Notes under the pieces: model-generated | Databases searched by the model: none | The model's input: only the letters and a program-made list of their open reading frames with translations | What the model was told of the DNA's origin: nothing | Assembly (NCBI GenBank): GCA_016208745.1 | Contig: JACQXN010000006.1 | Location: 67 to 64,066 of the forward strand | From: Candidatus Portnoybacteria bacterium | GTDB taxonomy: Bacteria > Patescibacteriota > Minisyncoccia > Portnoybacterales > GWB1-42-6 | Length of the DNA: 64,000 nt | Reading direction: 5' to 3' | Position numbers and translations under genes: made by a program | Shown: positions 19,561 to 24,948 of the stretch, piece by piece | Layout: the number at the start of each line of letters is the position of its first letter | Position numbering within the stretch: the first letter of the stretch is position 1

Positions 19561-20520
19561 GGCAAAAATTTAGACAGATGGATGATTTATTAGTACTCCT
19601 TGGCTTAACGCATTACTGCGCTTACACCTAGAGCCTATCAACCTTGTAATCTTCAAGGAATCTACGATACCTAATCTTGGGGTCTGCTTCGCGCTTATAT
19701 GCTTTCAGCGCTTATCAGATCCATACATAGCTACTCAGCAGTGCACCGGGCGGTGCAGCTGATACACCAGAGGTATGTTCTTCTCGGTCCTCTCGTACTA
19801 GAGAAGACTCCCCTCAAGTATCCACGCCTGCAGCAGATAGAGACCAACCTGTCTCACGACGGTTTGAACCCAGCTCACGTACCTCTTTAATTGGCGAACA
19901 GCCAAACCCTTGGGGCCTTCTTCAGTCCCAGGATGAGATGAGCCGACATCGAGGTGCCGAACAGTATCGTCGATATGGACTCTTGGATACTACCAGCCTG
20001 TTATCCCCGGAGTAGCTTTTAGCCGATGATCTTCCACCTTCCTATGAAGTATGGTCGGTTCACTAAGTTCCGCTTTCGCGACTGCGCGACATGTCCGTCT
20101 TGCAGTAAAGCCAGCTTATGCCTTTACGCGTCAGGGCCGATTTCCATCCGGCCCAAGCTGACCTTGATAAACGCCTCCGTTACTCTTTTGGAGGCTAGCG
20201 CCCCACTAAAACTGCCCACCAGGCACTGTTCCCGTCCCGTTTTGCGAGACAGGTTAGAACAAAGTTTTTTAAAGATGGGTGTTTCATTGGCGGATCCATG
20301 CAGGCCGAAACCTACACTTCAAATCCTACCCACTACGCTACGCATTAAAAAACAAGGCTCAATACCAAGCTGCAGTAAAGCTTCCGGGGTCTTTTCGTCT
20401 AGCTGCAGGTACCCGGCATCTTTACCGGAATTGCATTTTCACCGAGCTCCTCGTTGAGACAGTCCCCAAGTCGTTACGCTTTTCATGCGCGTCAGAACTT
20501 ACCTGACAAGGAATTTCGCT

Positions 20521-21373
20521 CAAATGTGTTATTCTGCCCTCGACTTTAGTCAGGGCAACTCTATATATCGCTATATAGTTCGGACTATATCTTCTCCGTG
20601 ATTTGCGGAGTTTGGCGTATAGTCTCTGGGGATTCTAAAAACTTGGATGGTTTGCACCGGTTAATTTTTTCCATTAAACCGGCGATCTTTTTCATTCCTC
20701 TGTACTTAAAATGTCTTTGAGAAATCATCATTTTGACGATCTTCGCGAACACTTTAAAATCTTTTTCTTTGGCGGTTTTGAGATTATTCTTTTCAAAAAA
20801 TGGAATAATCTTTGCATTCAAATCCGAAATGGATCTAACGCAATAACGAAAAAGGGGTTCTTTATGGTTGTCGTGGCGGCGGTTGATAAATATTTTTCCG
20901 CACTCAAAGAAATTTTGAATCATTTTTAATGAATTCAAACTTTTTTCTCCTTGAGTAACTACAAACTCCGGAAAAACTTGCCAACCAAATTTTGTTCTCG
21001 CGTTACGAATCATCGTAACGGAAAAACATCCTTCACCGTCAACATAACCAACTATCCATCCGATTGTTTTTAGCCTTTCCTGCGGATTGTCTGGCGCCTC
21101 TTCCTTAAAGGGCACACTGGTAGATTTTTTACTTGGCATAATGTTTCATTTGTTATGGTAACATTATACCATAGTATCTCCAGATACTCCAGATTTTCCC
21201 GTCCCGCAAGCCTTCCCTTATTGTGAAATTGTCACAATAACGTGACTTACGGATTCCCGAAATTGCATTTTTCCTTCGCAACCATACGGCTGCGGGATTG
21301 CGATTTGTTTCCAATCGCTTCGATCTTGGACAAATCGGGAACATATAGCCAAATTTTACTAAAGCAGTTTCCT
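20521..21373 (-). mobile_element. group I intron in the 23S gene at the position equivalent to E. coli U1931 (5' exon ends ..AAAGT, the intron ends in G, the 3' exon begins AGCGAAATTCC)
   Basis: Exon junction deduced by comparison with the conserved helix 69-71 sequence; the intron carries a homing-endonuclease ORF. Confidence 0.75.
20585..21139 (-). CDS. LAGLIDADG homing endonuclease (single-motif type) encoded in the intron
   Basis: GWIVGYVDGEGCF motif in a 184-aa ORF that lies within the 23S gene. Confidence 0.85.
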   Translation of the reverse strand: MPSKKSTSVPFKEEAPDNPQERLKTIGWIVGYVDGEGCFSVTMIRNARTKFGWQVFPEFVVTQGEKSLNSLKMIQNFFECGKIFINRRHDNHKEPLFRYCVRSISDLNAKIIPFFEKNNLKTAKEKDFKVFAKIVKMMISQRHFKYRGMKKIAGLMEKINRCKPSKFLESPETIRQTPQITEKI

Positions 21374-23918
21374 ACTTTAACACGATTATAGTTATCGCGG
21401 ACGTTCACTGGCGCTTAGCACAGTGAGCCTAGACGCACATCACCACATTCAGGCTAAACTTATAGTTTTACTCTTTATTGATTGGCGAAATTGCCGTCAT
21501 ATTAAAGAGCTTGCTTAATCTTTGAAGATTAAAAAGAAAAACTACAAATCTGCACTGAACGCAGTAAAGTGCGCCCAGACCCCCATGTTTAACGTTCCAG
21601 CACTGGTCAAGCGTCAGCCCCTATACTTCCTCTTGCGAGTTTGCAGGGACCTGTGTTTTTGGTAAACAGTCGCTTGGGGTCTTTAGCTGCGGCCCAATCG
21701 CATCGCGCTATGCACGACGCATAAATTTAAAATGTAAAAATCGAAAGTCAAAATTTAAGTGTCGCTTTGTGACAAATTATAATAAATTCGCCGCAGGCGA
21801 ATACCAAAATTTTACATTTTGCCCGCCCCGCTTCGCTTGGCGAGGCCGGGGATATTTTAATTTTGCATTTAGCGTCACACGCAGTGTGATGCGATCAGGC
21901 AGGTCATATTGCGAACTTACGACACGTTGTTTTGCCGAGTTCCTTAACGAGGACTCACTCGTTCGCCTGAGGCTACTCGCCTCGCCCACCTGTGTCGGTT
22001 TTCAGTACGGTTCCCTTATTTTTGACTCTAGAAGTTTTTCTTGGCAGCTCCTTCGTCCGAATTACCCCGCCTTCTAAGCCCGTCACCAAGATCTATAGAA
22101 CAAACTATTTTTTACCTCAAAAAAATAATGTCCTATAATCTGGTCATGAGCATAGAGGGCGGGGCTTTTCTCAATTTCGGAAATTATTCTGCCGGATTTG
22201 CCTGACAGACATTCCAAAACCAAGAATGATAATCCAATAAATCACTCAGACTTTTAAACTGCGTCACTCCGTTGAAAAAATAAGGAAGTGCAGGAATATT
22301 AACCTGCTGTCCATTATCCGAGCATCTCTGCTCTAGACTTAGGACCGACTAACCCTTGGATGATAATCATTGCCAAGGAAACCTTAGGCTTGCGGCGGTC
22401 CGGTCTTTCACCGGACTTGTGGTTACTTATTCCAACATTCTCTCTTCCTAACGCTCCAGCGAACCTCACGATTCGCCTTCACAGCAGTTAGAAATGCTCC
22501 CCTACCGCCTCGCGCTCCGCACGAAGAAATCCTAAATTAAAAATTCTAAATCCGAAACAAATTCCAAATTAAAATTTCCAAATCATAAAACGAAAATTTA
22601 ATTTAATTCTTGAATTTTGATCATTTGAATTTGTTTAGAGTTTGGGATTTAGTGCTAGAATTTCCTTGTGCGAAGCACAAGACCCATATCTTCGGTACTA
22701 AGCTTAGCCCCGATAAATCTTCGGTGCAAAATCTCTAGATTAGTGAGCTGTTACGCACTCTTTAAAGGATGGCTGCCTCTAAGCCAACCTCCTAACTGTT
22801 AGAGAAACTTCACCGCCTTGTTGACACTTAGCTTAGTTTAGGGACCTTAGATGATGATCTGGGCTGTTTCCCTTTTGACTATGGAGCTTCGCCCCCACAG
22901 TCTGACTCTGATGATAAAAATCTCGGCATTCGGAGTTTGATTAGGTCCGGTAGGAAAAATCCATCCAAACCCATTCAGTGCTCTACCTCCAAGACACAAA
23001 CATCAGGCTAGCCCAAAAGCTATTTCGGGGAGAACCAGCTATTACCAAGCTCGATTAGCTTTTCACTTCTTACCACAGCTCATCCCCCAGTGTTGCACGG
23101 CTGGTGGGTTCGGGCCTCCCCCTGATTTTACTCAGGGTTCACCCTGGCCATGGCAAGCTCGCCTTGGCTTCGGGTCTTAAATGTGCTGCATATTCACAGA
23201 TCGCAAATAGCTCGTCAGGCGCAGCCCGATAAGCGATTCGCAATAAGTGAAAGTCGCGCTATTAACACTTGGTTTCCCTATATCTCCGTCCCGAAGGACT
23301 TAGAAAAAGCAACACATATAAACTCGTTGGATCGTTCTGCAAAAAGCACACGGTCACCCACACGCATCTCGCTACTCGAGATGCTAAATTAAAAGTTTAA
23401 AGTTAAAATTTAAAAGTTATTGAGTGAAAAATTTTGAGACAAAATTTTTCACGAATTCCTAAATTTTTAACTTTTCATTTTTCATTTTTAACTTAGCGCA
23501 TCTTGCCCAGCAAGATGCGCGCAGGCTCCCATTCATTGTAAGTATATGGTTTCAGGGACTATTTCATCGCCCTCATCGGGCTGCTTTTCACCTTTCCCTC
23601 ACGGTACTAGTTCACTATCGGTGATATTGAGTATTTAGCCTTGGCACAATAGTCGTGCCGGATTCCGACAAGGTAGTCTTGGCCTCGCCGTACTTAAGAA
23701 CAATAACTAGGAGCATAAAACCGTTTTCGCTTACGGGGCTATTACCCTCTTTGGCACCGGTTTTCCATCCGGTTTCTGCTAACGAAGCCTTATAATTTGA
23801 TCTCCCTCTGGAACCTAATCAACAAGTCCAAGAAGTTTACCCTGAGCTTGTCGAAGGGCTCCAGAACGTTATTACCTTACAACACCCATACACCGCACAT
23901 CGCTGAGCTCTGTGCGTG

Positions 23919-24056
23919 AAATGTCTAATTTCTAATTATTCTAATTTCTAAGCAAATCCCAAATTTTTAAATATCCAATAATAAAAAGTAGTATTTTGTC
24001 ATTGGAAATTGGAAATTCATTAGATTAATTAGACTAATTAGGTCAATTAGAAATTT
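23919..24056. repeat. 138-bp AT-rich palindromic element (arms AATTTCTAATT...ACCTAATT / AATTAGGT..AATTAGAAATT) inserted at a 23S domain I helix tip
   Basis: Same family as 24154-24247, 50463-50597 and 51001-51138; complementary flanking rRNA sequences close the helix. Confidence 0.6.
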
Positions 24057-24247: not shown

Positions 24248-24327
24248 GCGCGTATCGAACGATAGTGAGATCGCCTTATTTTCTTTTCCTCCGCTTACTA
24301 GAATGTTTTACTTCAGCGGGTTAACTC

Positions 24328-24618
24328 CTGCTCAGATTTTTGGAGGGGATCATATTTATAGACGATCCCCCTAATAAATTAACATGCCCTAAGGCCTGTA
24401 TCATTGTATGTGACCAGGGCCACAAATGTCTCGCCAACGATAGCCAATGCGGTCGAAAGAACTTCGGGTTGTTCTTTTTTTTCCCATTGATTAATCTCTT
24501 CTCTTAATCGTACCATTGCACCCAAAGCATTCTCTGGCGGAACTCTTTCCACAACAAATTCCATTACCATACTATGTCCTCCTTTTTCAGAATTATTTAC
24601 TCCAAAAATCTGAGCAGG
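24328..24618 (-). other. intervening sequence of about 290 nt near the 23S 5' end, closed by a 19-bp inverted repeat (CCTGCTCAGATTTTTGGAG / CTCCAAAAATCTGAGCAGG) and containing a protein-coding ORF
   Basis: The insertion lies between conserved 23S segments (..GGGGAAACCC.. and ..GAAGTAAAACAT..), and the stem is a perfect 19 bp. Confidence 0.65.
24379..24570 (-). CDS. 63-aa hypothetical protein encoded inside the 23S intervening sequence (MVMEFVVERVPPENALGAMVRLREEINQWEKKEQPEVLSTALAIVGETFVALVTYNDTGLRAC)
   Basis: AAAGGAGG lies 7 nt upstream of the ATG. The longer track ORF 24379..24669 would read through conserved rRNA. Confidence 0.5.
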   Translation of the reverse strand: MVMEFVVERVPPENALGAMVRLREEINQWEKKEQPEVLSTALAIVGETFVALVTYNDTGLRAC

Positions 24619-24948
24619 TATACCGATTTTATCGGTATGGGTTTCCCCATTCGGATATCCCCGGATCAAAGCTTGCTAGACAGCTCCCCGAGGCTTAACG
24701 CAGTCACGCCACGTCCTTCATCGCCTCAATATCCCTAGGCATCCACCATACACCCTTAGCCATCTGTCTAAATTTTTGCCCCCAAGCCAAAGCTTGGGAT
24801 TGCCACGCTAAGCGCGGCCTAGATGACTAATAATTAAGTAACCATTAACGTTATCTGATTCTCTAATTTCACCCCGTCCCACAATACATTTGTGGCGGGG
24901 TTCTTTTATACCTGCTATATTCAATTTTCAAGTTGCTATCATTTTTCA

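Follow-up and report, generated by a model that had tools for sequence, protein, structure and literature searches.

Introduction

Genes for rRNA that carry many insertions were described in bacteria of the Candidate Phyla Radiation (CPR) in 2015, and were surveyed in 2022 and 2024 (PMC9297842, PMC11270868). According to these surveys, insertions of at least 100 bp occur in 82% of CPR 23S genes (mean 1327 bp, maximum 5750 bp, up to 16 per gene), mostly at the tops or bases of stem-loops; 45% of the insertions are group I introns, and open reading frames (ORFs) of the LAGLIDADG_1 family concentrate at positions 1917, 1931, 1952, 2593, 2604 and 2657. Here we describe the 23S rRNA gene on a 64,000-nt stretch (hereafter the window, to which all coordinates refer unless a locus is named) of contig JACQXN010000006.1, from a metagenome-assembled genome of Candidatus Portnoybacteria, a CPR bacterium. 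This gene is interrupted eleven times by sequences of two kinds, namely one predicted group I intron and ten hairpin-type insertions. A heavily interrupted CPR 23S gene with a LAGLIDADG intron at position 1931 (L1931) is of a kind already described in the published surveys, and LAGLIDADG introns at this position are common. The new point is that several of the hairpins belong to repeat families with further copies in different rRNA helices, within a 16S gene and in intergenic gaps.

With 2325 nt inserted and eight insertions of at least 100 nt, the gene lies within the range of the published catalogue. A word search of the two surveys finds palindromes, hairpins and repeat families unmentioned there, and a link between short insertions and dispersed repeats is not described in them (PMC9297842, PMC11270868).

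The L1931 introns (site 23IS7; Tsurumaki et al. 2024, PMC11270868) share with the intron described here their site, ORF family and single-domain enzyme, as well as the U-G pair at the 5′ splice site, the terminal G and the conserved core of P3, P7 and P8. The present intron differs from them in a private nested insertion of 141 nt, in a rarer AAAGU/GCUUU pairing and in a sub-threshold Rfam score, its ORF splitting the ribozyme. L1931 introns occur in Thermotoga, Simkania and organelles as well, as reported by Nesbo and Doolittle (2003; cited in PMC11809585).

The hairpins invite comparison with the intervening sequences (IVSs) known from helices 9, 25 and 45 of 23S rRNA in Salmonella, Leptospira, Campylobacter, Coxiella and alpha-proteobacteria (PMC4990558, PMC2801512). 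In both, the small loop at the tip of a helix gives way to an extended stem-loop, the inserts are AT-richer than their host and sporadic among close relatives, and sites at helices 25 and 45 are common to the two. One insertion here likewise carries an ORF closed by inverted repeats, but this ORF does not belong to the 23S_rRNA_IVP family. Further differences are that ten insertions per gene occur here as against one to three, that they occupy additional sites (approximately helices 10, 12, 15/16, 18, 31, 59, 63 and 68), and that one element may be present in several copies, at sites that are not homologous and also beyond the rRNA genes.

Among the dispersed palindromic repeats known to enter genes are the Rickettsia palindromic elements, the Correia/NEMIS elements of Neisseria (which are RNase III substrates), and the GC clusters and double-hairpin elements of mitochondria, the last group being reportedly treated by Paquin et al. 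(2000; cited in PMC4478555). The hairpins of the present locus resemble the Rickettsia, Correia and mitochondrial elements in being imperfect palindromes of 100-200 nt with many copies, in occupying intergenic positions and tolerated positions of structural RNAs, and in forming long RNA duplexes. No sequence relation between them is expected, however, and neither a terminal duplication nor a transposase was seen here. Eukaryotic expansion segments and the position of internal transcribed spacer 2 lie in the same universally variable helices as the present insertions, which differ in belonging to a bacterium, in being AT-rich, in varying from one close relative to the next and in probably being removed.

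Ten insertions extend helix tips of the 23S rRNA gene

The gene was delimited with the Rfam covariance model of bacterial large-subunit rRNA.

19570..24769, minus strand: 23S rRNA gene, 5200 nt (Rfam RF02541 LSU_rRNA_bacteria, 2133 bits, model positions 1-2925)

The match is full-length, and its 2133 bits stand against a gathering score of 50. The gene exceeds the 2925-position model by approximately 2.3 kb of insertions and intron, and the 853 nt of the intron together with the 1472 nt of the ten further insertions (2325 nt in all) cover this whole excess. An earlier reading made from the letters of the window (hereafter the sequence-only reading) had placed a 23S gene of about 5.2 kb at 19570-24772, leaving its strand unstated, and had judged that the insertions together nearly double its length; its observation is confirmed.

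To define the insertion limits, the whole gene and, separately, three sub-stretches of it were aligned to the covariance model. These alignments were used instead of a first global alignment to the E. coli sequence, which contained many small gaps and misplaced insertion F. The helix numbers are approximate, combining the E. coli map with the order of hairpins in the Rfam consensus. Coordinates of the insertions are listed 5′ to 3′ on the RNA.

24607..24336, minus strand: insertion A, 272 nt, replacing a 7-nt loop at about helix 10 (model hairpin 152-178)
24570..24382, minus strand: ORF-A, 63 aa, within insertion A and preceded by a Shine-Dalgarno sequence
24278..24131, minus strand: insertion B, 148 nt, an AT-rich hairpin replacing a 6-nt loop at about helix 12 (model about 225-233)
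24082..23891, minus strand: insertion C1, 192 nt, an AT-rich hairpin (z = -10.7) replacing a 10-nt loop in the helix 15/16 region (model hairpin 274-295)
23866..23799, minus strand: insertion C2, 68 nt, a GC-richer branch hairpin in the 5′ strand of a long helix, about helix 18 (model 312/313)
23521..23367, minus strand: insertion D, 155 nt, in the helix-25 hairpin (model 583/584)
23263..23198, minus strand: insertion D2, 66 nt, GC 0.50, replacing a 4-nt loop at about helix 31 (model about 686)
22670..22515, minus strand: insertion E, 156 nt, GC 0.26, in the helix-45 loop (model 1218/1219)
22159..22070, minus strand: insertion F, 90 nt, replacing a 4-nt loop at about helix 59 (model hairpin 1571-1590)
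21887..21704, minus strand: insertion G, 184 nt, replacing a 3-nt loop in the helix-63 hairpin
21574..21434, minus strand: insertion H, 141 nt (z = -7.9), replacing the 4-nt apical loop at the tip of helix 68

Each of the ten lies in or adjoins a hairpin loop, and none falls in the conserved core. All of them fold as hairpins, with 55-80% of their nucleotides paired and energies 2-11 standard deviations (sd) below those of dinucleotide shuffles. Seven or eight are long, imperfect, AT-rich hairpins that prolong the host helix, the GC fraction of the AT-rich insertions being 0.26-0.42 compared to 0.50 in the 3′ core. Their placement by the covariance model and their folding thus reveal the form expected of IVSs, that is, an extended stem-loop replacing the loop of a surface helix. 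The insertions are not all alike, since C2 and D2 are small GC-richer branches (D2 being located at the third hairpin of the helix 27-31 multiloop) and A, which ends in a perfect closing stem of 19 bp (24618-24600 with 24345-24327), bears an orphan ORF.

The sequence-only reading had listed seven AT-rich or palindromic segments as insertions, and had named a covariance-model alignment as the way to expose them as contiguous conserved rRNA instead; that alignment was run, and the segments held as insertions. All seven (A, B, C1, D, E, G and H) are real, including the one (E) expected in the helix-45 region as a classic IVS site, but C2, D2 and F had been missed. Six of its ranges came within approximately 10-40 nt of the limits listed above, while the range given for G (21780-21990) was about 100 nt off and took in conserved rRNA. 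Its remark that such a density of insertions is typical of CPR rRNA genes agrees with the surveys (PMC9297842, PMC11270868).

A recurrent capping hairpin, CCCGC-N3-GCGGG, was also considered and rejected, as the window holds one exact copy, which is no more than expected by chance.

The insertions vary among close relatives

A scan of species-representative genomes with the endonuclease encoded in the intron (see below) yielded 80 related loci (L005-L084), among which the present gene has the largest load of non-intron insertions. The closest relative, L005, has an rRNA core 83-94% identical to that of this gene. It is without F (the gap corresponding to 22164..22085) and without most of D and H, and this comparison reveals the insertions to be sporadic among close relatives, as IVSs are. 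Insertion C2 is partly common to both genes (39 nt at 95% identity). At the site of E, related hairpins were found in L030 and L057. Insertion H has a counterpart at the same site in L008 that is 82% identical over 170 nt, in which 3 of 108 paired columns of the stem differ, compared to 25 of 53 in the unpaired tip.

Hairpin families recur at non-homologous sites

The insertions were searched against the window and the 80 related loci, insertions across these loci were compared all against all, and metagenome contigs were scanned with an exact pattern for the arm of the element in insertion D. The resulting cross-site similarities stand 8-25 sd above those of dinucleotide (composition-matched) shuffles.

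Insertions B and C1 form one family, built of modules of the AATTTCTAATT type. This motif occurs 23 times in the window, a number reached by none of 100 shuffles. Two members of the family lie outside rRNA.

50460..50598, no strand assigned: intergenic hairpin of the AATTTCTAATT module family, exactly filling the gap between two minus-strand ORFs
51000..51140, no strand assigned: second intergenic hairpin of this family, exactly filling the gap between the next two minus-strand ORFs

Insertion B shares 38 of 40 nt with the intergenic segment 50558-50596, and C1 matches 50462-50482, 50577-50596 and 51086-51138.

Insertion D carries an element of a second family, GCTAAGTTAAAAATGAAAA...TTTTAATTTAGC, with shuffle z-scores of 16-25. 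In L005, part of the helix-10 insertion agrees with this element at 54 of 57 positions (95%), and the helix-63 insertion matches it at 72% identity over 139 nt. Its arm also occurs in helix 63 of another 23S gene (L085 and L089), and the family is further represented in the 16S gene of another organism (L086, 1238-1400), just 5′ of the GTGCCAGC (515) region.

Sequence similar to insertion G was found at three places of a Parcubacteria 23S operon (L030), namely the leader of the 23S gene, the insertion in helix 10 and the trailer. In this operon, one element of approximately 95 nt recurs at 97-98% identity in these three places (2694-2863, 3055-3161 and 8378-8557), leader and trailer sharing a direct repeat of about 211 nt at 89% identity. 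Moreover, a 102-nt stretch occurs at 99% identity in two different insertions of L030 (3357-3458 and 4026-4127), and in L040 50 nt are common, at 96% identity, to an insertion and its 3′ flank.

In this and in related genomes, the members of at least three hairpin families are thus spread over more than one site. Similar copies at non-homologous sites are what is expected of dispersed palindromic repeats, and this suggests that the hairpins are such repeats, possibly mobile ones.

A 36-nt exact match to the arm of the D element, without the second arm, was also noted in frame within a tsaD-like ORF (L088, 2791-2826; L087, 9535-9500), where it reads ...AAKLKMKNEKLKIEFPRPM....

The window contains further long AT-rich palindromes, at 16650-16763 upstream of rpoB, at 40712-40789 after a glycosyltransferase gene, and in the spacer downstream of the 23S gene. 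Two of these three contain modules like ATTACGAAA / ATTACTAAT. The longest unbroken helix of the spacer palindrome measures 22 bp, and its folding z-score is -11.7.

19469..19559, minus strand: AT-rich palindrome with 41-nt arms in the 23S-5S spacer (inverted-repeat search)

A group I intron with a LAGLIDADG ORF at position 1931

The remaining interruption is of a different kind.

20521..21373, minus strand: predicted group I intron, 853 nt, between the equivalents of E. coli U1931 and A1932 (E. coli alignment and covariance model)
20585..21139, minus strand: single-domain LAGLIDADG_1 ORF, 184 aa (Pfam PF00961, E = 8.7e-24)
21201..21341, minus strand: nested structured insertion within the intron, 141 nt (comparison with related introns)
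Intron-less 1931 junction: ...GUGUUAAAGU / AGCGAAAUUCC...

The site was located by global alignment to E. coli 23S rRNA (L001), the numbering of which was checked, and by the Rfam covariance model, which stops at model position 1957 (base 21374) and resumes at 1958 (base 20520). The 5′ exon ends in ...GUUAAAGU, with U as its last base, and the intron runs from AGGAAACUGCUUUAG..., with A as its first base, to ...AACACAUUUG. The 3′ end is ...CAUUUG, the final letter of which (20521) provides the terminal guanosine of a group I intron. The sequence-only reading had given exactly these intron limits, the exon-terminal U and the terminal G, had proposed a group I intron at the U1931-equivalent site, and had placed a LAGLIDADG homing-endonuclease ORF at precisely 20585..21139; each of these proposals agrees with the alignments, with the covariation described below and with the Pfam match.

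The intron contains both core motifs, CAGAGACUAUACGCC and GAAGAUAUAGUCC. In order to examine its fold, the 5′ and 3′ ribozyme parts of 29 introns of the same type were joined and then aligned for covariation. In P1, the exon sequence AAAGU pairs with GCUUU of the intron (21365..21361), and exon and guide change in a compensatory way, from AAAGU/GCUUU here and in L005 and L008 to AAGGU/GCCUU in most introns and AUGGU/GCCAU in L044 and L047. The splice-site U-G pair of P1 is invariant (29 of 29 introns). The P3 pseudoknot, in which UUUGGC (21353..21348) and GCCAAA (20616..20611) form 6 bp, is fully paired in all 29, with compensatory changes at five of the six positions. P7, P8 and P9 covary as well, and double changes were observed at 18 of 43 predicted pairs. 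A catalytic core consisting of the P3-P7 pseudoknot, P8 and the J8/7 motif GAAGAUAUAGUCC is therefore present.

Three points speak against this assignment. Rfam Intron_gpI (RF00028), a scan that the sequence-only reading had called for, did match the 3′ core CAGAGACUAUACGCC...GAAGAUAUAGUCC with E = 6.9e-7, but its 34.4 bits fall below the gathering score of 50, because the model is broken up by the 555-nt ORF together with the nested insertion. P4-P6 cannot be drawn, as the region is too conserved for covariation and offers a single candidate pairing, CUGGAA/UUYYAG. Finally, the nested 141-nt insertion (minimum free energy -55.6 kcal/mol, z = -5.8) breaks a conserved intron segment, standing in place of CU in AUGCUGGAAAAU. 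It is absent from L005 and from every other related intron compared, and is thus private to this lineage. With a conserved segment interrupted, the splicing competence of the intron has to be argued solely from the need for a working 23S rRNA. Taking these points into account, we judge the 853-nt block, from its sequence and covariation, to be a group I intron that occupies the well-known L1931 site and encodes a predicted homing endonuclease.

Other Rfam matches in the intron region at E <= 10 (sno_ncR3, mir-7360 and JA03) were at chance level and were dropped. Among loci L005-L084, at least one further type of intron 5′ end (TCTGAAACTT...GGACTGGGACG) was noted at the same 1931 site.

The ORF product matches PF00961 with 84.8 bits (cut-off 23.1) and carries the acidic motif of the family in the form GYVDGEG. 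We found 2773 homologues, and G31, D34, G35, E36 and G37 are invariant in an aligned subset of 33 sequences; the nearest solved structures in the PDB are of the I-SmaMI and I-OnuI type. An identical protein is assigned in public records to a Candidatus Portnoybacteria metagenome-assembled genome. In nearly all of the 80 related loci, the homologue lies within a block of 650-1000 nt between the 1931/1932 equivalents of a 23S gene, and a block at 1931/1932 is present in 69 of 84 sequences (the 80 related loci, three Logan contigs and the window). The stop codon of the ORF (TAG, 20587-20585) is located within the J8/7-P7′ core motif GAUAUAGUC, which means that coding and catalytic sequence overlap.

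The homologues in L005-L084 come from bins labelled Actinomycetota, Gammaproteobacteria, Acidobacteria, Bipolaricaulota and others; some of these taxon labels may be binning errors.

We infer that the intron self-splices and spreads by homing. Its removal from the precursor rRNA would proceed by two transesterifications, in which an exogenous G would attack after the P1 U-G pair and the intron-terminal G would serve exon ligation. The single-domain LAGLIDADG protein would, as a homodimer, cut intron-less 23S alleles at the 1931 site, and repair after the cut would copy the intron into the intron-less allele. CPR LAGLIDADG_1 ORFs have been reported at position 1931, and the CPR enzyme I-ShaI was shown to cut its own site and to dimerise (PMC11270868).

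Genomic setting of the 23S-5S pair

The following features surround the 23S gene.

25180..25207, minus strand: promoter-like TTGACA-16-TAAAAT with TG extension, 11 of 12 consensus positions matched, approximately 410 nt upstream of 23S
24760..24780, minus strand: 5′ strand of the 23S processing stem (read from sequence)
19561..19581, minus strand: 3′ strand of the 23S processing stem (read from sequence)
19304..19414, minus strand: 5S rRNA gene (Rfam RF00001, 75.9 bits)

The 23S gene is enclosed by a perfect 21-bp stem (24780-24760 with 19581-19561), made up of helix 1 and an 11-bp extension, which has the form of an RNase III processing stem. The 5S gene is flanked by a 30-nt inverted repeat (19286-19315 and 19404-19433). 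The promoter-like site at 25180..25207 is no more than a match to the consensus, and such sites are as numerous as shuffles predict. Neither a 16S gene (Rfam scan) nor a spacer tRNA was found in the 64-kb window, in which ARAGORN revealed only a distant tRNA-Gln. Because the 23S-5S pair stands alone in 64 kb with a promoter-like site upstream, the rRNA genes appear to be unlinked.

In Logan assemblies of five other sequencing runs, 23591-27225 and 19992-21846 are present at 100% identity, and since the locus is reproduced identically in these assemblies, its structure is not an assembly artefact. The Logan contigs all end at 21846 (within insertion G) and at 23591 (in the conserved core), which is the expected behaviour of short-k assemblies, as these break off where sequence is repeated or shared.

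The neighbours are ordinary chromosomal genes (rpoB, rpoC, ftsK, recA, IMPDH, ftsW and metK). An S-adenosylmethionine (SAM, S-box) riboswitch at 31184-31293 was noted directly upstream of the SAM synthetase gene metK (30011-31069, minus strand). Within the 23S gene, three ORFs other than the LAGLIDADG ORF and ORF-A were tested and belong to no Pfam family; these other internal ORFs were all treated as spurious because they overlap with rRNA on both strands.

Discussion

Taken as a whole, the locus is in our view probably a CPR 23S-5S operon with a homing group I intron and ten dispersed-repeat hairpins at helix tips. The hairpins would arise at the DNA level as copies of palindromic repeats, through transposition or ectopic conversion, and within rRNA only copies at helix tips that face the solvent would be tolerated. 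Once transcribed, the long duplexes would likely be cut out by RNase III, as in classical IVSs, leaving a fragmented but functional 23S rRNA. We propose a role for RNase III because a perfect 21-bp stem encloses the 23S gene, because insertion A is closed by a perfect 19-bp duplex, because in other bacteria RNase III cleaves the IVSs at helices 9, 25 and 45 (PMC4990558), and because the CPR survey judged short insertions at IVS sites, neither introns nor carriers of an ORF, to be "probably IVS" (PMC11270868).

A number of observations weigh against this account. No further copy of A, E, F or H turned up at a different site in the data examined. The ends of the L030 copies show no target-site duplication, and no transposase domain was found among 40 ORFs of the window. 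The elements are palindromic throughout, rather than having terminal inverted repeats with a target-site duplication, or a transposase. With no target-site duplication seen, a transposition mechanism is not established, and ectopic gene conversion between hairpins could also spread them. Likewise, no RNase III gene was found among 40 ORFs of the 64-kb window. Moreover, cutting at all ten hairpins would break the 23S rRNA into eleven pieces, some of 24-57 nt, which is extreme for a bacterium. The calculated sizes of these pieces are about 162, 57, 48, 24, 277, 103, 527, 355, 182, 129 and 1011 nt. Some insertions may therefore stay in the rRNA, with C2, D2 and perhaps H as candidates for expansion segments.

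This retention could in principle extend to all of the hairpins, which would then be solvent-exposed rods in an unfragmented mature 23S rRNA, as in eukaryotic ribosomes. We regard this as rather unlikely, although it would dispense with the eleven small fragments that full excision yields. The H stem, 97% conserved with respect to L008 while its tip has diverged, behaves as expected of a constrained structure, and C2 and D2 are short and GC-richer. The insertion sites also coincide with the universal variable regions of eukaryotic expansion-segment maps (helices 25, 31, 45, 59 and 63 and the 9/10 region). However, the long, near-perfect AU-rich duplexes would make good RNase III substrates, and several of the insertions are missing from the closest relative, L005, and hence are dispensable. 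CPR ribosomes are otherwise reduced (PMC9297842), and most CPR rRNA insertions are absent from RNA according to earlier transcript comparisons cited in that survey.

Returning to the dispersed-repeat account, its most general form would hold for CPR bacteria at large. Short non-intron insertions in CPR rRNA genes would be copies of mobile palindromic repeats and not site-specific IVSs, landing anywhere and persisting at exposed helix tips. Their sites would include 23S and 16S helices, rRNA spacers and gaps between protein genes, and may include the interior of protein genes. We consider this extension plausible, but put it forward tentatively and stop short of favouring it.

Its counterpart is that the ten hairpins are classical, site-bound IVSs, each acquired once per helix, passed on vertically or by exchange between homologous sites, and excised by RNase III, without forming a mobile family. 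Helices 25 and 45 are indeed classical IVS sites (PMC4990558). Sequences related to E (helix 45) and to H (helix 68) occupy the corresponding sites in other genomes, and the single-site occurrence of A, E, F and H noted above would fit as well. This explanation is nevertheless already contradicted for the families of B/C1, D and G: the D element is 72-95% identical to sequence in helices 10 and 63 of L005 and is found again in helix 63 of L085/L089 and in a 16S gene, B and C1 modules lie between protein genes, and the L030 copies are 97-99% identical at different places of one operon. For the set of ten as a whole it thus seems improbable.

A narrower alternative concerns insertion A, which might be an ORF-carrying IVS of the Leptospira/Coxiella type, with the 63-aa product of ORF-A being a real protein. 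A strong AAGGAGG lies 8 nt before its ATG, the sequence is not of low complexity, and a single-sequence AlphaFold prediction (mean predicted local distance difference test score, pLDDT, 73.6) yields a helix and a beta-hairpin; the closure of A by a 19-bp inverted repeat is also as in ORF-bearing IVSs (PMC4990558). On the other hand, an exhaustive HMMER search of 1.84 billion representative proteins returned no homologue but ORF-A itself, no Pfam family matched even at E <= 10 (specifically not 23S_rRNA_IVP, S23p), tblastn gave no match in the 80 related loci, and Foldseek against the PDB gave no fold match below E = 0.7. We therefore doubt that A is such an IVS. A known IVS protein or part of a toxin-antitoxin system was rejected as an identity for ORF-A given that it has no Pfam match, and a HMMER match to a eukaryotic SAGE1/CT45-like protein (P0122) was taken as chance.

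Finally, a chimeric assembly or a pseudogene in decay, with insertions that are junk, can be dismissed as a very improbable account of the long gene. In its favour are the metagenomic origin of the sequence, the frequent mis-assembly of rRNA regions and the implausible taxon labels of the bins to which many related loci belong. Against it, five independent assemblies agree at 100% identity over 5.5 kb of the locus, the gene aligns to the covariance model from end to end with every insertion in a loop and not in the conserved core, an intact processing stem, a 5S gene and a promoter-like site are present, and CPR genomes usually have one rRNA copy according to published surveys (PMC11270868).

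For annotation, genes of this kind have a practical consequence, as gene callers place ORFs inside the 23S gene, and primers or probes will fail on it. If the spread of the hairpin families proves to be genome-wide, it would explain how CPR rRNA genes gather so many insertions, would link bacterial IVSs to dispersed palindromic repeats, and would amount to a natural experiment that reveals where rRNA can accommodate extra RNA. If the hairpins are indeed mobile repeats, they would offer a concrete source for bacterial IVSs, the origin of which is debated ("remnants of transposition"), and would explain why the map of insertions mirrors that of eukaryotic expansion segments.

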